Source: Planctomycetota bacterium (GTDB lineage: Bacteria; Planctomycetota; MHYJ01; WSZJ01). Taken from it: a stretch of 20,311 bases of DNA. The notes under the pieces are model-generated. The model worked only from the letters and a program-made list of their open reading frames with translations, ran no database searches and was not told where the DNA came from. Numbering within the stretch: the stretch's first letter is position 1; each line of letters begins with the position of its first letter. The stretch covers positions 1 to 20,311 of the forward strand of contig JBBTCT010000019.1 of NCBI GenBank assembly GCA_038060895.1, read 5' to 3'. The position numbers were made by a program, and so were the translations under genes. Positions 4,360 to 18,898 of the stretch are shown here, piece by piece.

Positions 4360-4450
4360 GGGGTAGTGCGTAGGAGGCGGGAACAGCCCTGCTGATCCCC
4401 GTGCTTCCAGGTCTCCTTCTAACTACTCCCTACCCACTACCTCCTACCCC
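4360..4450. repeat. Inverted heptamer-repeat element between convergent genes
   Basis: Left arm GGGGTAG TGCGTAG GAGGCGG (4360-4380). Right arm CTACTCC CTACCCA CTACCTC CTACCCC (4423-4450), whose units are reverse complements of NNNGTAG. Confidence 0.65.
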
Positions 4451-5606
4451 CCGCCTTTCCCGCCTTCAACCGAATCCTCGCGATCTCATCCATGATCGCG
4501 TCGCACTCGTCGTCCGTATTGTAGAAGTGCGGGGAGATGCGCACGCCGGCCTTCGGGCGGTAGTCCACGATGAACTTGCGGCGGATCAGCTCGTTGCAGG
4601 CGGCTTCGGCGCCGGGGAAATCGACTGAGACCGTCCCGGCCCGCACGGCGGGGTCCATCGGCGTATTCACGACGAGTCCCTGCTCGCGGGCCCGTTCGAT
4701 GATGCGCGCCGTCATCTGCATCGACCGCTTGCGGATCGCCTTTACGCCGACCTTCTTGATGATCCGGTATCCGGGGCGCGTCGAGTAGAGCCCCTGCACA
4801 CCGGGCGAGCCGCCCATGTACCGCATGACGGTGGGCGCGTACTTGATCGGGTCCATGTCGAAGTTGAAGGGGTGCTCGTGCGAGAACCAGCCGCACGACT
4901 TCGGCTCGTACTTGCCGATCAGGTCCTTGCGCACATAGAGGTAGCCGCCGCTCGGCCCGCCGCAGAGCCACTTCACGCTCCCGCCGACCATGAAGTCGCA
5001 GTTGAGGTCCTGCACGTCCACGGGAATCGTCCCGACCGCCTGGTACGCGTCCAGCACGACCACCGCGCCGACTTCATGCGCGCGCTGGATGATCGCCCTG
5101 GCATCCTGGATGAAGGCGCTTCGGAAGAGCACGTACGAGATCGGCACGACCAGCGTCGTTTCGTCAATTTCGCGCAGCATCAACTCCGTCGGCAGGTGAA
5201 CGCCGTCGGGCGACTTGACGATGACCACGTTCGCGCCGTCCTTCTCGCGCGCCTTCCAGTTGTAGTGGACCGTCGGGAATTCGAGGTCGCTGTAGACGAC
5301 CTTGTTGCGCTTCCCCTTGAAGTCGAAGCACGAGATCAGGACGTGCTGCAGCACCGAGACGTTCTGGTGCATGATCATCGTCCCCTTCGGCGCGTTCACG
5401 ATGGAAGCGATCAGCTCCGCCGTCGATTGAACCATCGGGACCCAGTCTTCCCACGCGACGACGCCTTTGGTCGCCCAGAGGTCTGCGAATTCCTCGAGCT
5501 CGTCGTAGACGCCCTTGGGCATCGCGCCAAGCGAGTTGGAGATCAGGTAGGTGCACTTCGCGAGGATCGGGAACTCGCGGCGCCACTTGAGCAGGTCGTT
5601 CGTCAC
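4437..5606 (-). CDS. kynU: Kynureninase-like PLP-dependent aminotransferase class V enzyme (389 aa)
   Basis: Motifs YLISNSLGAMP, LEFPT, VLDAYQAVG, GGSVKWLCGGP (PLP lysine), GWFSHEHPF and RISPHFYN. It lies directly downstream of a TDO-like gene. GTG start. Confidence 0.75.
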   Translation of the reverse strand: MTNDLLKWRREFPILAKCTYLISNSLGAMPKGVYDELEEFADLWATKGVVAWEDWVPMVQSTAELIASIVNAPKGTMIMHQNVSVLQHVLISCFDFKGKRNKVVYSDLEFPTVHYNWKAREKDGANVVIVKSPDGVHLPTELMLREIDETTLVVPISYVLFRSAFIQDARAIIQRAHEVGAVVVLDAYQAVGTIPVDVQDLNCDFMVGGSVKWLCGGPSGGYLYVRKDLIGKYEPKSCGWFSHEHPFNFDMDPIKYAPTVMRYMGGSPGVQGLYSTRPGYRIIKKVGVKAIRKRSMQMTARIIERAREQGLVVNTPMDPAVRAGTVSVDFPGAEAACNELIRRKFIVDYRPKAGVRISPHFYNTDDECDAIMDEIARIRLKAGKAGGRR

Positions 5607-5642
5607 CGGTCTTGGCTCCGTTCACGGCGAGTTTGGAGGTTT

Positions 5643-5747
5643 GAGTATTGAGGATTGAGCAGGGCGGAGTGAGGAGTTCGCAGGGAGCAGGTGCAAAGCG
5701 CCTCAACTCCGCACTCTCCACTCCTCCCTACTCAATCCTCAACACTC
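5643..5747. repeat. Inverted-repeat element with heptamer-repeat arms between the TDO-like and kynU genes
   Basis: GAGTATTGAGGATTGAGCAGGGCGGAGTG (5643-5671) pairs with CACTCCTCCCTACTCAATCCTCAACACTC (5719-5747) at 26/29. The left arm is built of TTGAGTA TTGAGGA TTGAGCA units. Confidence 0.8.
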
Positions 5748-5764
5748 CCAACCGGCCTTTGCAG

Positions 5765-6448
5765 TTACCCGTACTGCGGTGACACTGCCCGCGTCAGGTC
5801 GTTCACGGCCTTCCAGAGCGGCGGAAACACCTTTTCAACCGCGGTCGGCGCCAGCGCCGCCGCAGGCACTCCCTTCAGCGACTTCACTTCGTCCCCGATG
5901 ATCCGCCGCACGAGGTGGAAATGGTGGTACCGCCAGGACTGGAAGTTCTCGTCCACCTGCATCAGGGCCTGAAGGAACATCCACAGGTCCCAGTGCTTCC
6001 TCGGCTCCTTGTAGATCGCGTCGATCGTCGCCTTGCGGCGTTCTAGAAGCGCCGCGACATTCGGCCAGATCTGCGGAAGCCGCTCGAGCAGCGCCTGGAA
6101 CCCCGGCGACTCCTGGCCGCTTCCCTTGCCGAGCGCGTTCAGCCGGATCACGTGGTAGTCCGCCGGCGGCATCGACTCGAGGATCTTGAGCGAACCCGTG
6201 AGGTGCTCCAGGATGTGGGCGATGCGGCGCAGGTAATGGTCCGCGCTCTCCAGCTCGTCGCGGTCCACCATCCCGCTCACGCGCTCGATCTCGAAGCACG
6301 TTTCCTTAAGCCAGATTTCCATCGACTGATGAAGCGTCTGGAAGAGGAGTTCGTCGGGGTGGACCATCTGGTCGGGCGTTTTCTGAAGCGCGAGCAGTTC
6401 ATCGGTGCGGATGTACTTTTCGTAGTCGCTGATCTTTTTCTCTGCCAT
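5765..6448 (-). CDS. kynA: Tryptophan 2,3-dioxygenase family heme enzyme (227 aa)
   Basis: Start reassigned to ATG 6448 (MAEKKISDYEKY). TDO motifs: YIRTDELLALQ, HPDELLFQTLHQSMEIWLK, YHVIR..LGKGSGQESPGF, DENFQSWRYHHFHLVRRIIG, FPPLW. Confidence 0.8.
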   Translation of the reverse strand: MAEKKISDYEKYIRTDELLALQKTPDQMVHPDELLFQTLHQSMEIWLKETCFEIERVSGMVDRDELESADHYLRRIAHILEHLTGSLKILESMPPADYHVIRLNALGKGSGQESPGFQALLERLPQIWPNVAALLERRKATIDAIYKEPRKHWDLWMFLQALMQVDENFQSWRYHHFHLVRRIIGDEVKSLKGVPAAALAPTAVEKVFPPLWKAVNDLTRAVSPQYG

Positions 6449-6510
6449 GGGGAGCCACTCTAGCCGGGGCGCGCCCAATTTCAAGAAAGGGCCGGTGGAG
6501 AGAGAATCGG

Positions 6511-6538
6511 GGAACCCAGGACTGTGAAATGTGTCCAA
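6511..6538 (+). promoter_or_regulatory. Candidate ECF-sigma promoter for the 6580 lipoprotein gene
   Basis: GGAACC (6511-6516), 16 nt, GTCCAA (6533-6538), matching the general ECF pattern GGAAC-N16/17-GTC; SD GAGGAG at 6568-6573. Confidence 0.4.
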
Positions 6539-6579
6539 GAGACGGCCACAAACCGGAATTCCCCGTTGAGGAGCGCACG

Positions 6580-7437
6580 ATGAGAACTCTAGCCCTCTGC
6601 CTGCTCACGTTGTCCACGGCGTGCCGTGCCGAGGACACAGCGGCGGCAACATCGGTACTGGACGGCGCAACCCGGGCCCTTGAAGCGCAAATCAGCGGGG
6701 GCCAGGCGATGGGTCAATTCTGGGACGGTTTTGAGGAGGGAACGGAGATCGAATTCCGCCATGAATCCACAAGAAATGGCGTGAAACAGGAATCGTCCAT
6801 CTTCTACCAGATCCTGAAGCGGGACGGGCGGTCGCTGTCTCTGCGCGTGAAGAGTGGTGACCAGGATCGGACGATCGAGATCCAGGGGTTGCCTGAAGGC
6901 GCGGAAGACATGGTGAGTCCCCTGCGTGAGAAGCCGGTCGATCAGGCCATTCCAGGCCGCGAAATCGTCCAGGTCGGCGACAAGGAGTATTCGTGCACCG
7001 TAAGCGAGCGCACGGTCAAGTCGTACCCGCAGTGCGGCACGGGCGAACCGCAGTTCCGCATCCATCGAGTGCGCGCGTGGCACTGCAGCGACGTCGCGGC
7101 GCAGGGCGGGGTGCTGAAAGTGGTGGCGACCTGGGAGGAAGAGTGGGGAGAGGGGCTGCAGGTCAAACTGCGAACGGAACTGGCGGTGACGGAGCTCAAC
7201 GTGAAAAGGAAGATCGGCGACATCGAGCTCACCTGCTACGCAGTATCCACTTCGTCGCGGTGCGGAGAGATCGTAAACCAGGAATCGGCGGAATTGCGGA
7301 TGGACACGACCCCCGGCAGGATCATCGATTCCACGGAAAAATCCCGGGATTCCGAGGGCAAGTCGGACTGGGTGACCTCCCGTCATTGGGTCGGAAAAAT
7401 GTCGCTTACGCGCAAGGCAACGATCGAGAAGAAGTAA
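6580..7437 (+). CDS. Hypothetical exported protein/lipoprotein with two related beta-rich modules (285 aa)
   Basis: ATG 6580 after GAGGAG; signal peptide ending LSTA-C (lipobox-like). Internal similarity between VQVGDKEYSCTV...SDVAAQGGVLKV and RKIGDIELTCYA...MDTTPGRIID. Confidence 0.7.
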   Translation: MRTLALCLLTLSTACRAEDTAAATSVLDGATRALEAQISGGQAMGQFWDGFEEGTEIEFRHESTRNGVKQESSIFYQILKRDGRSLSLRVKSGDQDRTIEIQGLPEGAEDMVSPLREKPVDQAIPGREIVQVGDKEYSCTVSERTVKSYPQCGTGEPQFRIHRVRAWHCSDVAAQGGVLKVVATWEEEWGEGLQVKLRTELAVTELNVKRKIGDIELTCYAVSTSSRCGEIVNQESAELRMDTTPGRIIDSTEKSRDSEGKSDWVTSRHWVGKMSLTRKATIEKK

Positions 7438-7496
7438 TCGCGGCTCGACGGTTTCCTCGCTTCCCCCACAGGGTCCCTCCCCTCATAATCGTGCCC

Positions 7497-9797
7497 ATGA
7501 GCCGTTGCCAGCTTTGCGGGGCGCCGTGTAACGAGGCGCAGGAACACTGCTCGAAGCCGTGCGCGCATGTCGCGAAGGAAGCGGCGCGGGACGGTATCGA
7601 GGCCCGCGTCCGGCGGGCGTTCCAGAGGCGGAAGCGTGCGCCGAGCCTGGCGCCGGACCCGGAAGCGGAACAGATGCTTTTTGAGGTTGAGGGTTTCTGG
7701 GGGCCTGGGTGCGCGGGCGCAGCGGAAGAAATCCTGCGCTGCGCTGCAGGCGTCCACGATGCGAGCATCGTCGGCGACACCGGCCGCGGGCGCGCTTCGT
7801 TCGACCCGGAACAGGTCATGGCACCCGCGATCCTCGACATTCTCCGGCGCTACGGCTTTCGCGCGACGCTCGTCCGGGACGCCTGGGCCCGGTCCGAGGG
7901 ATTCAGCAGAGCATGGGAACTGACGCTCGCCCTCCGGCTCGGCGTCAGCGTCACTCTTGCGATGATCGTATTCGTCCTCACGCTCCTGCTCGCATCCAGG
8001 TACATCGGCGACGAAGGCGGGGACCAGGCCGCCGGCACCGTCCGGGTTCTCATGCTGTTCCTCACGCTCCCCGTCCTTTGCTACGGCGGCTTCCCGATAT
8101 TCGCCAACGCCTTCTGGGCGGTCGCGCGCCGCCGCGTCACCGCCGACCTCCTCACCGCCGCCGCCGCCGCAGGCGCGTTCCTCCTCTCACTCCCAGCCGT
8201 CGTCGAGCACAAGCGGCCCATCCACTTCGACGCCGCCTGCGCCTGCGTCGTCCTCACACTCTTCGCCCGCCTCTGCGAGTACCGCGCCCGCCGCCGCCTG
8301 GCGCGCGTCGGCGAACGCTTCGCCGCCCTCGTCGCCGGCCCCGCCATGCGCGTCCGCAAGGGCGAGGAAATCGCCTGCGCCGCGGGCGAGCTCCGCCCCG
8401 GCGACGTCGTCCTCGTCGCCGCCGGCGCACGCGTTCCCGCGGACGGCGATGTCGTCGAGGGAAGCGGCGTCCTGGAACCCGTCTCCGGCGGGCGCGTCGA
8501 GTTCTCCCCGGGCGACCGCATCGCCGCAGGCGCGCGTCTCAACTCCGGCCGCCTCGTCCTTCGCGCGGAACGGACCGGCGCGGCGACCTCCGTCGGCGAA
8601 GTCGCCCGTATCGTCGAACACGCCCTCGCCTCGCGCATGCCCGGCTCCGCCGCCGTCACCCGTGGCCTCTTCTGGGCCGGCGCCGCCACCGCGACCTTCG
8701 GACTGCTCGCGCTCTTCCTCGGCGAAACGCGCGAACCGCTTCTCGCCGTCCTGCTCGCCGCTTCTCCGTCCGCCATCGCCCTCCTCCCCTCGATCGCCGG
8801 CCTCTCCGCGATGGGCCGCGCCGCCGAACGGCTTGCGTGCTTCCGGTCCGGCGAAGCGTTGGCCGCCGCCGCGAATGCGGACGGCGTCGTCCTCGCGCGC
8901 TCTGCGATGCTCGAGCCGCGCGCGACCGCCGACGCCGCCGCGATCCAGGGCGAACCCGCCGAGTTCTGGTCGGTCGTCGCGTCGCTCGTCTCCGTCGCCC
9001 AGGGTCCCGTCGCCGCCGCGATCCGGGAACGCGCGCGCTCCGAGGGCGCGACCCCCGCCCTCTCCGTCCCGCCCTCCGACGGCCCGCTGTCGCGCGCCCG
9101 CGTGGACGGCCGCGATGCCGCCGGCGGCGACCGCGCGGCGCTCGAGGGCCTCGGATGGAGAATCGCGGCCGAAGCGCGCCCCGCGCTCGCCGAGGAAGAG
9201 CGCGGCCGGACGCTCTTCTGGGCCGGCTGGGACGGAGAAATCCGCGGAGCGATCGCGATCGACGCGGCGGAGCGGCAGGGAGCGGCGGAGATCGGCTCGA
9301 GGCTGAAGCGCGCCGGCCTGCTGACGTGCCTGGCCGGCGCCGATGCGGATGCGGCGCTCGACGCGCAGGCCGCCAGGCTCGGGCTGGACACGTGGATGTC
9401 CGAAGCGGCGCTCGCGGACGGCATGGCGAAGCGGCGTGCGAACGGCCGGCGCACGGCGCTGGTCGCGCGTGCCGCGGTCGATCCGCCGCCGGGCTCGGAC
9501 GCGGCCGACCTCACGATCGCAGTGGACTGTGCCGAGGAAGGCGCGCCGGAGTGGGCCGCGGTTGTCGCGCTGGGTCCCGACGTGCGGGCGGTTGACGCCG
9601 CGCTCGGTTCGGCCAGGCGTGCGGCCCGGGCGCGCCGCCTCGGCGGCACCGCCGCGTTTCTGTACCACGTCGCGGCGCTTCCCTGCGCCGCGGCAGGGCT
9701 GGTCAGCCCGATGGCGGCCGTCGGGCTCGGGGCGGTGTGCGCGCTAGGGCTGATCCACACCGCTCTGCGAGCCGGCGGGAATCCAGGCGGGCAGTAA
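7497..9797 (+). CDS. Degenerate (predicted catalytically inactive) heavy-metal P1B-type ATPase homologue, CcoI/FixI-like architecture (766 aa)
   Basis: Start reassigned to ATG 7497. Has an N-terminal CxxC...CxxxC module, an HMA-like domain (FEVEGFWGPGC), TM segments (LTLPVLCYGGFPIF, HFDAACA), an A-domain (ELRPGDVVLV..GARVPADGDVVEG), GEIRGAIAI and a C-terminal YHVAALPCAAAGLVSP. DKTGT, TGES, CPC, HP, TGD and GDGxND are all absent. Confidence 0.8.
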   Translation: MSRCQLCGAPCNEAQEHCSKPCAHVAKEAARDGIEARVRRAFQRRKRAPSLAPDPEAEQMLFEVEGFWGPGCAGAAEEILRCAAGVHDASIVGDTGRGRASFDPEQVMAPAILDILRRYGFRATLVRDAWARSEGFSRAWELTLALRLGVSVTLAMIVFVLTLLLASRYIGDEGGDQAAGTVRVLMLFLTLPVLCYGGFPIFANAFWAVARRRVTADLLTAAAAAGAFLLSLPAVVEHKRPIHFDAACACVVLTLFARLCEYRARRRLARVGERFAALVAGPAMRVRKGEEIACAAGELRPGDVVLVAAGARVPADGDVVEGSGVLEPVSGGRVEFSPGDRIAAGARLNSGRLVLRAERTGAATSVGEVARIVEHALASRMPGSAAVTRGLFWAGAATATFGLLALFLGETREPLLAVLLAASPSAIALLPSIAGLSAMGRAAERLACFRSGEALAAAANADGVVLARSAMLEPRATADAAAIQGEPAEFWSVVASLVSVAQGPVAAAIRERARSEGATPALSVPPSDGPLSRARVDGRDAAGGDRAALEGLGWRIAAEARPALAEEERGRTLFWAGWDGEIRGAIAIDAAERQGAAEIGSRLKRAGLLTCLAGADADAALDAQAARLGLDTWMSEAALADGMAKRRANGRRTALVARAAVDPPPGSDAADLTIAVDCAEEGAPEWAAVVALGPDVRAVDAALGSARRAARARRLGGTAAFLYHVAALPCAAAGLVSPMAAVGLGAVCALGLIHTALRAGGNPGGQ

Positions 9798-9841
9798 GAG
9801 CGGCGACGGCCGGGAAGCAGGCGATTCAGGACCGCAGATTT

Positions 9842-9873
9842 ATACTTGACTATTTTGATCAACATTGTAAGCT
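9842..9873 (+). promoter_or_regulatory. sigma70-like promoter overlapped by an Rrf2-family (IscR/CymR-like) operator upstream of cysC
   Basis: AT-rich island with TTGACT (9846-9851), 16 nt, TAAGCT (9868-9873). The 25-mer ATACTTGACTATTTTGATCAACATT has a TTGA-N9-TCAA dyad resembling the IscR type-1 consensus. SD AAGGAG at 9895-9900. Confidence 0.6.
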
Positions 9874-9906
9874 TGCCCCGTCCAACATCGATTCAAGGAG
9901 ACTTCA

Positions 9907-10467
9907 ATGCCGCACAAGGGCTTCACCCTCTGGTTCACGGGCCTGTCCGGCTCCGGCAAGTCCACCCTCTCCAACCGCCTCGCGCAGGAATTCCGCCAGC
10001 GCGACTACAGGGTCGAACTGCTCGACGGCGACGAACTTCGCACACATCTCTCCAGGGGACTCGGTTTCTCCCGCGAAGACCGCGACACCAACGTCCGCCG
10101 CATCGGCTACGTCGCCAAACTCCTGTCCCGCAACGGCGTCATCGCCATCACCGCCGCCATCTCACCTTACCGCGACACCCGCAACGAAATCCGCCGCGAA
10201 CACCGCGATTTTGTCGAGGTTTACGCGGAAGCGGCGATCGAGAAACTGGCGGAGCGCGACGTGAAGGGTCTCTATCGAAAGGCGCAGGCCGGCGAAATCG
10301 CGAATTTCACCGGCGTCTCCGACCCCTACGAACCGCCTCACGGCGCGGAGGTCGTCGTCCACACCGACCGCGAAACCGTGGACGAGTCCCTCGACCGGAT
10401 CCTGACGTTCCTCGAAGAAAACGGCTTCATCGACGCAGAAGCGCCGGTCGCCGCGAGTGCGCTCTGA
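9907..10467 (+). CDS. cysC: Adenylyl-sulfate (APS) kinase
   Basis: [15 protein letters not shown]-loop, [49 protein letters not shown]. Confidence 0.97.
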
Positions 10468-10476
10468 ACGACGCCG

Positions 10477-10511
10477 CTCCGCGGGGGTAACCTGTCTCAC
10501 CCCCTGCGGAG
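10477..10511 (+). other. Intergenic GC-rich stem-loop between cysC and the PHP gene
   Basis: CTCCGCGGGGGT (10477-10488) pairs with ACCCCCTGCGGAG (10499-10511) with one bulge; there is no U-tract. Confidence 0.55.
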
Positions 10512-10523
10512 TCGCCGAACACC

Positions 10524-11369
10524 ATGCACCACGAACGCTTTGTCGATCTCCACTCCCACACAACCGCCAGCGACGGCTCGCTTCGCCCGGCCGAACTCGT
10601 CCGGAAAGCCGCTGCCGAAGGACTCACCGCCCTCGCCGTAACGGATCACGACACGATCGAAGGACTGGCCGAAGCGCGCGACGAATCGCGCAAGGCCGGA
10701 ATCGAGCTGGTGAACGGGATGGAACTGTCCGTGAAGTGGAATGAAGGGACGTTTCACCTTCTGGGTTACCTGTTCGAGGAGGGGCCGGGACTGGCCGAGG
10801 GGCTTGCAAAACTGCAGGCGCTTCGCCACGACCGCAACCTGCGCATGCTCGCGAAAATGAACGAGCTGGGGATCGACGTGAGCCACGCCGACATCGCCGC
10901 CGAGAGCGGCGGAGGCCAGGTAGGGCGCCCGCACATGGCGAAGGCACTCGTGCGGAAAGGCCACGCCGCGTCCATCCACGATGCGTTCGAGAAACTGCTG
11001 CGCCGCGGGCGGCCGGCGTACGTGATCGTGGACCGGCTGGAGCCCTCCGACGCGTTCTCCCTCGTGCGCCACGCGGGCGGAGTGCCTGTCATCGCGCACC
11101 CGTACCAGCTGCGGCTGACCGAGGAGGAGCTGGATGCGCGGGTCGCGGGCTGGAAGAAAGACGGCCTCGGCGGGATCGAAGTCCAGCACTCGTCGCATGA
11201 CGCAGCGCGTCAATCGTTCCTGGAAGGTCTCGCGAAACGCCACGGGCTCGCCGCCACCGGAGGAAGCGATTTCCACGGCGACACGAAACCGGACGCGCGC
11301 CTCGGCTGGGCGGGAGGCGGGGCTCGCATCCCCCTTTCCCGGCTCGATGACCTGAAACGGAGGAAGTAG
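10524..11369 (+). CDS. PHP-domain metallophosphoesterase (TrpH/YciV, COG0613-type); candidate 3',5'-nucleoside bisphosphate (pAp) phosphatase
   Basis: Motifs DLHSHTTASDG, AVTDHDT, GMELS, HLLGY, GRPHMA, VIAHP, GIEV, TGGSDFHG. Confidence 0.9.
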   Translation: MHHERFVDLHSHTTASDGSLRPAELVRKAAAEGLTALAVTDHDTIEGLAEARDESRKAGIELVNGMELSVKWNEGTFHLLGYLFEEGPGLAEGLAKLQALRHDRNLRMLAKMNELGIDVSHADIAAESGGGQVGRPHMAKALVRKGHAASIHDAFEKLLRRGRPAYVIVDRLEPSDAFSLVRHAGGVPVIAHPYQLRLTEEELDARVAGWKKDGLGGIEVQHSSHDAARQSFLEGLAKRHGLAATGGSDFHGDTKPDARLGWAGGGARIPLSRLDDLKRRK

Positions 11370-11370
11370 A

Positions 11371-12066
11371 GTGACGACTTCAATCGCCGTCGGCGAGTGG
11401 ACGGACGCCTCCGCTTCCCTCGAAGGAAAATCCCCCGAGGACATCCTCGACTGGGCGACGGCGCGCTTCTCGCCGAAGCTCACCATGGCGACGGCGATGG
11501 GGGCCGAGGGATGCTGCATCGTCGCGATGCTCGCGAAAATCGGCAGGCCGGTGCGGATCTTCAACCTCGACACGGACTACCAGTTCGAAGAGACGCTCGA
11601 CACGAAGAAGCGCCTCGAGGAGAAGTACGGGCTCCAGATCGAAACGGTCCGCGCGGAACGCACCAGAGCCGAAATCGAGGCGGAATTCGGGCCGGACCTG
11701 TGGAAACGGGACACGAATCTGTGCTGCAGGATCCGAAAGGTCGAGCCGCTTCGCGAAACGGTGAAAGGCTGCGACGCGTGGGTGAGCGCGATCCGCCGCG
11801 ACCAGACGCCGGACCGGGCGCAGTCCGCAATCGTCGAGTGGGACGCCCGCTTCCAGCTCGTGAAAGTAAACCCTCTGCTCAACTGGACCTGGAAAAACGT
11901 GTGGTCGTACATCCACACGAACGACGTCCCGTACAACCCGCTTCATGACAGCGGCTACCCCTCGATCGGCTGCTGGCCCTGCACCAAACGGGTGGCCCCG
12001 GGCGCCGATCCGCGCAGCGGCCGGTGGAGCGGCGAGAAGACAGAGTGCGGACTGCACGCGCGCTAG
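11371..12066 (+). CDS. cysH: (Phospho)adenylyl-sulfate reductase, 4Fe-4S-motif type
   Basis: LDTDYQFEET, CCRIRKVEPL, AIRRDQ, KVNPL, YNPLHDSGYPSIGCWPCT, RSGRW, C-terminal KTECGLH. GTG start follows the PHP stop after a 1-nt gap. Confidence 0.95.
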   Translation: MTTSIAVGEWTDASASLEGKSPEDILDWATARFSPKLTMATAMGAEGCCIVAMLAKIGRPVRIFNLDTDYQFEETLDTKKRLEEKYGLQIETVRAERTRAEIEAEFGPDLWKRDTNLCCRIRKVEPLRETVKGCDAWVSAIRRDQTPDRAQSAIVEWDARFQLVKVNPLLNWTWKNVWSYIHTNDVPYNPLHDSGYPSIGCWPCTKRVAPGADPRSGRWSGEKTECGLHAR

Positions 12067-14137: not shown

Positions 14138-15397
14138 ATGAAAACGCTCTTCACCGCCTTCCTCCTCATATCGGCCGCCACCGCGGGCCCGATGTTCGAC
14201 GATCCGCGCGCCGGCGTCGCCTTCCCGACGCCCGACGGCTGGACCGAGGTTCCCACACCCCCCGTCCCCGACGACGCCGAGCCCTCCGATTCCCCCCTCA
14301 CCCCGCTCGTCCGCTTCCAGTCCTCCCGCCCCGCCGCCGACGGAACCCTCGCACGCCTCGATGTCTTCTTTGTGCGCGCTTCGAGCCTGGACGAAGCGCA
14401 GAAAGCATTCGAGCGCGGCATGCAGGATTCATGGAGAGGGTTCGAGGTCTCCGAGCGCCGCGATCTGGGAAGCGCGAAGTCCTTTTCAGCGAAGATCGAA
14501 GGCGGCAAGGCGTTCGGCGCGGTGGTGCAGGACGGGAAGCGGTTTGCCGGGATTCTCCTGGCAGGCGGCGGGGACACGACCGACGCGCCGGTGATCGCGG
14601 CGACGGGAACGTGGGCCTGGTCGCGCCCCGATCCCGATGCGCCGCTGAGAGTTCAACCCGGCTGGAAAGCGCGCGAGACGCAGCACTACCGGATCCGCTA
14701 CGCGGGAGACGACGACTTCGCGGCCGAGGTCGGCCGGCACCTCGAAGCGATTTCCACCGAGCTGCGCCGGGTTCTGCCTCTCGAGGTTCCAGGGACGTCC
14801 CGCCGCGCGTTCGACGTCCGCCTCTTCGGAAACGAACGGGAGTTTGAAGCGTACGCCGCGCTCAACGGCGTGAACGGCGCCGAGGCGTATTTCAGCCCCG
14901 CGCAAGGTGAGCTCGTGGCGCACATGGACGGACGCGCCCCCGAGCGGACGTTTCACGTGCTCTATCACGAAGCGACGCACCAGTACCTGCGCGATGCGCT
15001 CGGCAAGGGCGTCCGCATTCCAATCTGGCTCGACGAAGGTCTCGCCGAGATCTTCTACCCGGGAACCTTCGGCGCCGGCGGCCGGTTCACGCTCAAGGAG
15101 AACCTAGGCCGGCGAGACGAGGCAAGGGACGCGGTGGTGGACGGAAGAGCTCCGACGCTGGAGAAAATGTTCGCCATGACGCGCGACGAGTTCTACGCGC
15201 TGGAGCCGTCGTACGGCCTCGGGTGGTCCGTGGCGCATTTTCTGCTGAACGATCCGAGATACCGGGGAACTGTCGTGGGATATCTCGAAGCGCTGAGGGA
15301 GACTAAAGACGATGGAAAGGCGCGAGAGAAGGCGTGGACGAATTTCACGGTGGAACAGCTGGAGCGCGATTGGAAGAAGTGGGTCGTTGAAGAGTAG
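14138..15397 (+). CDS. Secreted DUF1570 / peptidase MA-like zinc metallopeptidase
   Basis: Signal peptide MKTLFTAFLLISAATAG; ETQHYRIR, AEAYFSP, VLYHEATHQY (HExxH), PIWLDEGLAE, YGLGWSVAHFLL. Confidence 0.85.
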   Translation: MKTLFTAFLLISAATAGPMFDDPRAGVAFPTPDGWTEVPTPPVPDDAEPSDSPLTPLVRFQSSRPAADGTLARLDVFFVRASSLDEAQKAFERGMQDSWRGFEVSERRDLGSAKSFSAKIEGGKAFGAVVQDGKRFAGILLAGGGDTTDAPVIAATGTWAWSRPDPDAPLRVQPGWKARETQHYRIRYAGDDDFAAEVGRHLEAISTELRRVLPLEVPGTSRRAFDVRLFGNEREFEAYAALNGVNGAEAYFSPAQGELVAHMDGRAPERTFHVLYHEATHQYLRDALGKGVRIPIWLDEGLAEIFYPGTFGAGGRFTLKENLGRRDEARDAVVDGRAPTLEKMFAMTRDEFYALEPSYGLGWSVAHFLLNDPRYRGTVVGYLEALRETKDDGKAREKAWTNFTVEQLERDWKKWVVEE

Positions 15398-18022: not shown

Positions 18023-18064
18023 ATGAAATCGCGGGCCTCCGACAAGGAGGCCCGTTTCATTTCC
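18023..18064 (+). terminator. Intrinsic terminator-like hairpin after mltA
   Basis: Stem CGGGCCTCC (18032-18040), loop GACAA, stem GGAGGCCCG (18046-18054), followed by TTTCATTTCC. Flanking ATGAAA/TTTCAT can extend the stem. Confidence 0.7.
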
Positions 18065-18141
18065 TGCGCGCCCTTCCGCTATGGCTGCGCAAATTCCCTC
18101 GGCACCCTCGCGGTTCCACCCCAGGTGTGGCTCGGCGGAGG

Positions 18142-18156
18142 CGGCACGGCGGTTGC
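18142..18156 (+). promoter_or_regulatory. sigma54 (-24/-12) promoter upstream of ric
   Basis: CGGCACGGCGGTTGC matches YGGCACG-N4-TTGC with exact GG-N10-GC spacing; it ends 34 nt before ATG 18191; SD GGAGG at 18179-18183. Confidence 0.7.
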
Positions 18157-18190
18157 CGTACTGTCGGGGAATCCTTCCGGAGGTCCACCC

Positions 18191-18898
18191 ATGAACGCCA
18201 CCGTCGATCCTGCCCGTTCCCTCGCCGACCTGGTCACCGAGCGCGAATCCCGCGGCGACATCCTTGAGAAATTCGGCCTCGATTTCTGCTGCGGCGGGCG
18301 CAAGTCCCTCCGCGACGCCTGCAGCGAGTCCCGGATTTCCCTTCCGGACGTCGTCCGCGCGCTGGATCGCAACGACGCGACGCCGCCACCGGCCGGAGCC
18401 GTGATCGACTGGCGAAAGGCCCCCCTGCGCGACTTCCTGGACCACATCGTCGGCACTCACCACGTTTACCTGCGGCATGCCCTTCCGGCTCTTCAGCTGA
18501 AGGTCGATAAAGTCGCCCAGGTCCACGGCGAGCGACACACGGAACTCTGGAACGTCCGCGAGATCTTCTCAAAGCTCAAGATGGAGCTGGAAACGCACCT
18601 CGCGAAGGAAGAGGACGTCGTATTCCCTGCCATCCGCAGGATGGAAGCCGGCATCCCGCTTCCGGAGTCGGCGATGTGCGAACTGGAGGATGAGCATCAG
18701 AAGGTCGGCGACGCCCTCCACGAAATCCGGCGGATCACGAATTCATATCGCGCGCCGGCGGATGCGTGCCCGACGTACCGGGCGATGCTCTCGGACCTGG
18801 CGGCGCTGGAAGCGGACACCCACCACCATGTGCACAAGGAGAACAACGTCCTCCTGCCGCGGGCGAGGGGCGCGGCGCGGAAGGCTGCCGGGCGCTGA
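18191..18898 (+). CDS. ric: Iron-sulfur cluster repair di-iron protein (Ric/YtfE/ScdA, 235 aa)
   Basis: Start reassigned to ATG 18191. ScdA_N motif GLDFCCGG; hemerythrin motifs HIVGTHHVYLR, HLAKEEDVVFP, LEDEHQ, HHHVHKENNVL. Confidence 0.95.
   Translation: MNATVDPARSLADLVTERESRGDILEKFGLDFCCGGRKSLRDACSESRISLPDVVRALDRNDATPPPAGAVIDWRKAPLRDFLDHIVGTHHVYLRHALPALQLKVDKVAQVHGERHTELWNVREIFSKLKMELETHLAKEEDVVFPAIRRMEAGIPLPESAMCELEDEHQKVGDALHEIRRITNSYRAPADACPTYRAMLSDLAALEADTHHHVHKENNVLLPRARGAARKAAGR

Follow-up and report, generated by a model that had tools for sequence, protein, structure and literature searches.

Positions 1-20,311 of contig JBBTCT010000019.1 of a Planctomycetota bacterium (assembly GCA_038060895.1), called the window below, carry on the forward strand a gene (7497-9797) whose 766-residue product, P0001, has the architecture of a P1B-type metal-transporting ATPase and lacks the catalytic motifs of such a pump. 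The reading frame runs to one terminal stop, and its G+C content at codon positions 1, 2 and 3 (0.77/0.59/0.87) is the coding signature of a genome of about 67% GC. Orthologues begin alike, with M-x-R-C-Q-L-C-G. Three further long open reading frames (ORFs) of 493-628 codons overlap the gene (7709-9595 on the plus strand, 8081-9865 and 8187-9668 on the minus strand); none of the three has a Pfam match, and long overlapping frames arise here because the DNA is rich in GC. An earlier note on this DNA, made from the letters alone, had described 766 uninterrupted codons with coding GC bias, a series of altered motifs with their coordinates, and retained N-terminal CQLC...C cysteines (residues 4-22), and translation and alignment bear out each of these readings.

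Matches to family models tie P0001 to the P1B ATPases by its layout. The sole Pfam match above threshold is to E1-E2_ATPase (PF00122, 2.3e-18, residues 282-445), while the Pfam Hydrolase and HMA models, present in every intact match, both fall below threshold and reach only E values of 0.032 (PF00702) and 0.075 (HMA) when the respective regions are searched in isolation. The NCBIfam model of P1B ATPases, TIGR01525, aligns from position 2 to 558 of its 560 positions with residues 217-757, scoring 142.9 bits where the cut-off is 346.25; TIGR01511 likewise scores below its curated threshold (122 bits against 397), and NF041115 matches residues 57-126 (6.4e-09). Measured against what defines the P1B family, P0001 is no member of it: it lacks five motif features and scores below the model cut-off, and only the architecture agrees.

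Loss of the catalytic and copper-site motifs

The losses were delimited by a column-by-column comparison of P0001 and its orthologues (the pseudo-P1B clade) with 70 intact P1B ATPases. Among the 131 columns conserved in at least 80% of the intact set, 52 are kept by the clade (largely Gly, Pro and Ala), 21 are fixed as another invariant residue and 58 are variable, and the clade has replaced every catalytic or copper-site motif column in which the intact pumps are 100% conserved (Table 1). At the position of the phosphorylated aspartate the clade has A, L, S, T or H, and this freedom to vary indicates that nothing is selected there. The TGE loop of the actuator domain has Gly or Ala for Thr at 331 and Arg or Ala at 333 for a Glu that is found in 100% of intact pumps. 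Beside the altered HP motif of the N-domain, a nearby Glu has become Val498 and the Gly531 position holds L, V or I; we take the Glu, His and Gly of positions 498, 503 and 531 to be adenine-pocket positions of CopA N-domains. K639 of intact pumps is replaced as well. In the membrane, the M6 motif MxxSS (745-749) is gone, with M745, S748 and S749 lost and variable in the clade, and Ala216 stands where 97% of intact pumps have Met. CPC, the Asn of YN and MxxSS are presumably the Cu(I) ligands of the pumps, and the positions Met to Ala216 and Asp to S/T/A388 are assumed here to belong to the cytoplasmic metal entry site.

What the clade has kept lies largely outside these sites. C10 of the N-terminal cysteine module is not invariant across the seven clade sequences, in contrast to the four cysteines listed in Table 1; the counterpart of this module in the nearest intact relatives reads CxxC...CCxGC. 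In the HMA-like domain the first Cys is G, T or A in the clade and C72 is invariant. Cys730, in M5-M6, is invariant in all seven clade sequences.

No phosphoenzyme forms in HAD-type or P-type chemistry without the phosphorylated aspartate and its partner residues. Judged by its residues, P0001 is predicted to be unable to perform that chemistry: it would not be phosphorylatable, would have no usual ATP pocket and would not coordinate Cu(I) in the membrane. As a clear homologue of an enzyme family without the catalytic residues, it is by its sequence a pseudoenzyme in the operational sense of the term. That it might still be an active pump with unorthodox catalytic residues is extremely improbable: although D616 of TGD and D/E662 of GDGxND survive and the fold is complete, the aspartate is gone together with the Lys, Thr and Gly of DKTGT, the Glu of TGE, the His of HP, K639, D658 and N661. 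The roles of the DKTGT aspartate and the A-domain Glu are also given in a study of another P-type family (PMC13466520), discussed below.

Table 1. Features of the pseudo-P1B gene and its product, in coordinates of the window
Feature	Position	Strand	Basis
ATAAT element, 7 nt before the ATG	7485..7489	+	ATA(A/C)T invariant in 5/5 orthologous loci, rest of the spacer diverged
Coding sequence of degenerate P1B-type ATPase homologue P0001, 766 residues	7497..9797	+	Open frame, coding GC, end-to-end TIGR01525 alignment, common start of orthologues
N-terminal cysteine module C4-x2-C7...C18-x3-C22, zinc-ribbon-like	7506..7562	+	C4, C7, C18 and C22 invariant in 7/7 clade sequences
HMA-like ferredoxin-fold domain, one cysteine left	7665..7874	+	NF041115; CxxC reads GPGC, residues 69-72 (7701-7712)
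Membrane helices MA, MB, platform, M1 and M2, residues 129-279	7881..8333	+	AlphaFold2 helices 129-166, 169-197, 199-210, 216-236, 244-279
Actuator (A) domain, TGE loop lost	8340..8573	+	PF00122; beta-rich fold in model; GSGVLEPVSGG, residues 322-332 (8460-8492)
M4 SPS replacing CPC, residues 423-425	8763..8771	+	C423S and C425S invariant in clade; P424 invariant everywhere
Former phosphorylation site, ARSAML vs DKTGTL, residues 467-472	8895..8912	+	K to R and T to S fixed in clade
N-domain AQGP vs SEHP, residues 501-504	8997..9008	+	His (100% in intact pumps) to Gly503
P-domain AGADA vs TGD, residues 613-617	9333..9347	+	Gly (100% in intact pumps) to A/T/P615; D616 kept
P-domain ARAAVD vs GDGxND, residues 657-662	9465..9482	+	G657, D658 (to R, invariant), G659 and N661 lost; D662 kept as D/E
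M5-M6, residues 697-759, YH (723-724) vs YN	9585..9773	+	N724H invariant; AlphaFold2 helices 697-732, 738-759

Fold and ancestry

The fold was modelled with AlphaFold2 from an alignment that joined 8 clade sequences to 70 intact ones, and the model has the complete P1B fold (mean predicted local distance difference test score, pLDDT, 92.2; predicted template modelling score, pTM, 0.89), an outcome that the earlier note had left to modelling. Eight membrane helices and the A, P and N domains are present, laid out as an N-terminal hairpin and helices, a ferredoxin-like domain, MA/MB/platform/M1/M2, the A-domain, M3/M4, the P/N domains and M5/M6, and the M4 helix is broken at 421-425. Foldseek matches the model to P1B structures with a probability of 1.00, the top structures being the copper pumps 7r0g (template modelling score, TM, 0.79 by target; root-mean-square deviation 4.8 Å), 7xuk (human ATP7B) and 8q74 (titled as an E1 state); a sequence search of the PDB gives 3j08 as the best match (3.6e-41). 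The solved copper pumps CopA of Archaeoglobus fulgidus, which we take to be the organism of 7r0g, and ATP7B are thus the closest matches in both sequence and fold (7r0g, 7xuk, 3j08). They differ from P0001, to which they are about 20-24% identical, in being working pumps with all motifs present.

The nearest relatives suggest a CcoI-like ancestry. The nearest ESM Atlas clusters are named as CcoI family, with PF12156 on 53-75% of their members, and the nearest intact relatives (P0081, P0006, P0007; 28-30% identity) have an N-terminal module and, ahead of the HMA cysteine, the Trp that P0001 also has. CcoI/FixI-like P1B-1 pumps, the bearers of PF12156, share with P0001 the order of N-terminal Cys module, HMA-like domain, eight helices and A/P/N domains. 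In contrast to these pumps, P0001 is without DKTGT, TGE, HP, TGD, GDGxND, CPC, YN and MxxSS, scores well under the family cut-off, and belongs to a genome in which no cbb3 genes were found. A FastTree phylogeny of 88 sequences was a quick tree with long branches, and therefore only the long stem and the non-nesting of the clade were used from it. The clade adjoins groups with an N-terminal module, apart from the three pumps of its own genome, on a stem of 1.62 substitutions per site with a crown of about 0.1-0.25. A long stem below a shallow crown fits a burst of change followed by stabilisation.

Distribution and selective constraint

A search of a 5.8-billion-protein index returned four clusters (P0002-P0005; 61-82% identity) with the same losses and a match only to PF00122, the next match being an intact pump at 28% identity. 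HMMER over 1.84 billion representative proteins recovered a clade representative and the fragments P0080 and P0139, after which the matches fall to 30% identity and 204 bits. The orthologue P0003 is labelled 'cation-translocating P-type ATPase' by one source. Eight genomes make up the family, and they belong to a single genus: intact orthologues of full length occur in G003, G004, G006 and G007, and G001 and G002 hold pieces that end at contig ends. No match was found in G005 (same genus, 81% complete), in 4 genomes from three other families of the order, or outside the genus in a 401-genome sample of the phylum, where the best outsider reached 162 bits and 29% identity. When metagenomes were scanned with the clade alignment, one further truncated copy came to light on a JGI contig (L041), and its frame stays open as far as the contig end. 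In the sets searched, the pseudo-P1B form is found only in one groundwater planctomycete genus, and to speak of an undescribed system, as had been done, overstates what is a single gene in that genus.

The frame is open in all five full-length copies and in the three partial copies cut by contig ends. Length differences among orthologues are of whole codons only, and no frameshifted orthologue was seen, with up to 39% amino-acid divergence among the five full-length copies. Pairwise ratios of nonsynonymous to synonymous substitution (dN/dS) were computed by NG86 over about 762 codons of these five, giving 10 pairs. They lie at 0.10-0.39 in 10/10 pairs, and for an active CopA-type paralogue, in the same five genomes and the same pairs, at 0.13-0.39. 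Strong GC bias at third codon positions (GC3) probably distorts dS in the pseudo-P1B gene and in CopA alike, and the CopA control is therefore the relevant comparison. When the gene is divided into nine segments, each is constrained (dN/dS 0.14-0.31), the chemically dead P and N domains included, and the lowest value, 0.14, belongs to the HMA-like domain. Invariant columns among the five sequences make up 61% of MA-M2 (131-272), 60% of the HMA-like domain, 56% of the N-terminus, 44-48% of the P-domain and 48% of M3-M4. Between the window genome (G000) and G003, identity is about 62-64% for pseudo-P1B, 52% for GH35, 69% for the tryptophan 2,3-dioxygenase (TDO), 78% for cysC and 83% for kynU, so that by this measure the divergence of pseudo-P1B falls inside the range of neighbouring genuine genes.

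These comparisons argue that, within one genus, the gene is kept by purifying selection over its whole length and is not a decaying pseudogene. The earlier note had proposed just this, a repurposed and maintained protein, and had named close relatives with intact motifs, or frameshifted orthologues, as evidence to the contrary; with five open orthologues, every domain constrained and the closest intact relatives at 28-30% identity, its proposal stands. A decaying pseudogene whose frame has stayed open by chance in high-GC DNA, for which the three other long open frames and the disappearance of all catalytic motifs might speak, is very improbable. The same frame is open in 5/5 full-length orthologues at 61-82% identity with whole-codon indels, the dN/dS range equals that of the active paralogue, codon-position GC follows the pattern GC3>GC1>GC2, and 52 structural columns are kept.

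Genomic context

The flanks of the window outside the gene, about 14 kb, were annotated by Pfam. Upstream, on the minus strand, lie kynureninase and TDO (4437-6538), a pair that presumably forms the tryptophan-to-anthranilate route and that is divergent from the pseudo-P1B gene in most relatives. Downstream, on the plus strand (9907-12066), follow adenosine 5'-phosphosulphate (APS) kinase (cysC), a PHP-domain protein (10524-11369) and 3'-phosphoadenosine-5'-phosphosulphate (PAPS) reductase (cysH), a row that is kept in all four relatives examined; we assume that the PHP protein may be a PHP-type 3'-phosphoadenosine-5'-phosphate phosphatase. On the opposite strand of this row, 10497-11573 is open for 358 residues and has no Pfam match. 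Codon-position GC there fits the plus-strand gene better, and the frame is in all likelihood an antisense shadow of the PHP gene, its apparent tblastn conservation in relatives arising because the real gene is on the other strand.

Gene order is shared across the genus over the whole 20 kb, in which the flanks are collinear together with about ten other genes; adjacency to the pseudo-P1B gene therefore has no specific weight. A conserved operon partner was considered and rejected, given that the flanking synteny is the genus-wide collinearity and that a 110-nt AT-rich gap precedes cysC. In G007 (L033, G007:C30; 5157-8723 and 11277-12615), the upstream neighbour is a 1188-residue fn3-repeat protein on the opposite strand, which replaces TDO, and an insertion of about 1.3 kb without a family match separates pseudo-P1B from cysC. 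In the window, an ORF at 6529-7437 on the plus strand encodes 302 residues with a signal-peptide- or lipoprotein-like N-terminus and no Pfam match, in DNA of local GC about 0.61. It is absent between TDO and pseudo-P1B in G003, G004, G006 and L041, where TDO is directly upstream, and is probably a recent insertion. Farther downstream on the plus strand are a DUF1570 protein (14138-15397) and a ScdA_N and hemerythrin protein (18023-18898), the latter of a type that we take to serve the repair of iron centres.

Expression signals

The plausible promoter of the earlier note is only partly borne out. A sigma-70 scan that requires both hexamers found no plus-strand site upstream of the gene, whereas ATAAT or ATACT stands 7 nt before the ATG in all five loci (Table 1). 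From its sequence and position, this element could be the -10 box of an mRNA with no leader or a short one. The gene is present entire in two groundwater DNA runs, a possible source of the assembly, and in parts in runs from another study, of an aquifer. Three RNA-Seq libraries, all from one sample of one study, yielded contigs that agree with 7215-9087 throughout and with 9464-9735 apart from one difference, and these give a hint of transcription, no firmer than that. RNA contigs are absent over 9806-12007 and 5402-6869, parts of both of which are covered by a DNA run of the same study, and no inference is drawn from this absence, since contigs so shallow, from runs selected by way of this gene, give no ranking of genes.

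Possible role of the pseudoenzyme

Collectively, these results are best read as describing a complete P1B-type (CcoI/CopA-like) pseudoenzyme that is maintained by selection, to which we assign a probability of roughly 0.6. The general proposition that P0001 is functional and does not pump is very likely. What it does can be proposed more tentatively. Since constraint is found in every domain, the protein is probably used as a whole, and since it is strongest in the N-terminal, HMA-like and MA-M2 parts, with five invariant cysteines, a receptor or adaptor is favoured. P0001 would then be a static, ATP-independent membrane receptor or adaptor, in which the frozen A/P/N headpiece would offer an interaction surface and the ligand, whether a metal, a redox signal or a partner protein, would bind at the N-terminal four-Cys module, the single-Cys HMA-like domain and the MA-M2 platform. 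As a specific mechanism, suggested by the location of constraint in the sequence, this is a tentative proposal that is on its own rather less likely than its opposite.

Several observations weigh against this reading. Domains differ only modestly in constraint (44-61% of columns invariant, in five sequences), and it is from the location of that constraint that the receptor or adaptor mechanism is read. The clade is shallow and confined to one genus, so that a few million years of residual constraint after a recent inactivation are conceivable; the long stem counts against a recently inactivated gene of this kind. Part of the confidence of the AlphaFold2 model is borrowed from the 70 intact homologues in its alignment, and because of this the ESM Atlas's own model of P0001 (pTM 0.72) is also cited, which aligns to P1B clusters with TM 0.70-0.80. 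The N-terminal four-Cys module has no significant match to a Pfam family, and no conserved operon partner, regulator or signalling gene lies beside the gene. Finally, the RNA contigs have a depth of 2-3, come from runs that were picked by the pseudo-P1B gene itself and may reflect carry-over of DNA.

The residues that remain in the membrane domain raise a different possibility, namely a passive carrier or membrane-site 'transceptor' in which S423-P-S425, Y723-H724 and C730 would bind a harder metal or small ligand, which would either cross without ATP or be reported. S423, S425, H724 and C730 are invariant in the clade yet unlike the residues of intact pumps, P424 and the M4 helix break are kept, and a second, independent degenerate clade (below) has also changed CPC to SPA, SPS or SPG, a hint that Ser-Pro-x is favoured and not random. 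However, the presumed entry-site residues at 216 and 388 and the M6 MxxSS are lost, and P-type pumps rely on phosphorylation to drive alternating access, a step closed to P0001. Moreover, the cytoplasmic domains have dN/dS values of 0.18-0.31, like the membrane segments, where relaxation or deletion would be expected if the membrane alone mattered, and M3-M4, with 48% of its columns invariant, ranks with the less conserved parts. We consider such a carrier unlikely.

Slightly less likely again is a regulatory or structural subunit that pairs with an active pump of the same cell, a dead paralogue modulating a live one, an arrangement known from many pairs of pseudoenzyme and enzyme. Three intact P1B pumps are encoded in the genome and could serve as partners (484-650 bits): those on contigs C18 (CPC/YN/MxxSS, CopA-like), C9 (CPC) and C42 (TPC). 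Candidate small HMA proteins of the same genome lie at G000 C1:26135-26278 and C8:60504-60686. The constraint on the whole headpiece is also what an interaction surface would show. None of the three is adjacent to the pseudo-P1B gene, though, and the clade is no recent duplicate of the C18, C9 or C42 pump. A CcoI-like ancestry would lead one to look for cbb3 oxidase, yet searches with FixO, FixS and PF12156 found no convincing cbb3-oxidase, CcoO or CcoS genes in the 86.5%-complete genome, and PF12156 had no match in it, the four-Cys module of P0001 included. The partnership with an active CcoI that had been suggested is accordingly not borne out by the gene content of this assembly. Weak partial FixO-like (mono-haem cytochrome c) matches occur at G000:C27:8803-9549 (L024/L025), inside a 1090-residue open frame whose product is probably not a cbb3 subunit but a large protein with a cytochrome c domain.

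Known parallels and a second degenerate clade

Retention of a transporter fold for sensing, with no transport, is known from the transporter-like sensors or 'transceptors' of yeast, Snf3/Rgt2 and Ssy1. These differ from P0001 in belonging to other superfamilies (MFS/APC), and no signalling tail or partner was identified for P0001. Among P-type ATPases, the nearest published parallel found is the flippase module of the alveolate P4-ATPase-guanylate cyclase (P4GC). According to the study that describes it, the DKTGT Asp and A-domain Glu of this module are altered or absent in some lineages (Cryptosporidium, P4GC-beta, gregarines and Tetrahymena), while the module is needed and is still predicted to fold as before; its authors suggest that ATPase activity may have been lost and that the module may play a supporting part (PMC13466520). 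The flippase module is eukaryotic, belongs to the P4 class and has its output supplied by the cyclase to which it is fused, whereas P0001 is bacterial, of the P1B class, stand-alone and without any of the motifs. No description of a bacterial P1B pseudo-ATPase was found in the full-text literature, a search that subscription journals lay outside, and a keyword search within a review from 2023 that surveys unanswered questions about P-type ATPases gave two unrelated passages and nothing on inactive members (PMC10654040).

P0001 is not the only degenerate member of its class. A motif screen of the 228 collected proteins found 15 without 'DKTG' or GDGxND. Seven of these belong to the window clade (the five full-length proteins with P0080 and P0139), in four (P0035, P0138, P0159, P0182) the Asp remains and a single neighbouring residue has changed, P0135 has DKTG and is without GDGxND, and three are broadly degenerate (P0037, P0121, P0201). 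P0121 reads SPR, FATSGT and GEGLGD at the motifs, and P0201 reads CPA, LDPADL and GNGIND.

P0037 is one of a second clade of degenerate P1B proteins, which comprises 16 clusters (P0037, P0229-P0243) of full-length homologues of about 670-684 residues with 62-89% identity. In all 16, CPC has become SPA, SPS or SPG and both TGES and GDGxND are lost, and in 15 of them DKTGT reads EQxGx. In contrast to P0001, these proteins have no HMA domain or N-terminal Cys module, have Glu, a conservative replacement, in place of the Asp, keep YN in 11/16 and are still scored by PF00702. A placement of P0037 as sister of the window clade in the FastTree phylogeny (support 97) was rejected as long-branch attraction, since its own relatives are intact pumps at about 50% identity. 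An independent origin of the second clade is indicated because these nearest intact relatives, about 50% identical, carry the names Terrabacter or Intrasporangium (actinobacterial). For its genomic context, a scan of genome contigs gave two unrelated rhizobial pumps and a metagenome scan gave nothing. The two clades might mean that bacteria have repeatedly turned the P1B fold into an ATP-independent sensor or adaptor, with a convergent change of CPC to a Ser-Pro-x site and with the headpiece as a signalling or docking surface; this generalisation is doubtful, somewhat more so than the receptor or adaptor proposal for P0001 itself.

Significance

P-type ATPases are among the best-understood of molecular machines, and their members are normally recognised by DKTGT. 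Here a whole pump has apparently been kept under selection with all of its chemistry removed, and a second, independent clade has done likewise. The clade of P0001 is confined to one genus and has been seen only in metagenome-type assemblies and environmental runs, with no isolate among the sequences found. For annotation, the consequence is that metagenome surveys may include genes of this kind in their counts of metal-resistance pumps. As a fully degenerate, selectively maintained P1B paralogue, P0001 is, judged from its sequence, a pseudoenzyme or transceptor-like case, which would show a use of the P-type fold beyond pumping and would offer a natural 'frozen' pump for structural work.

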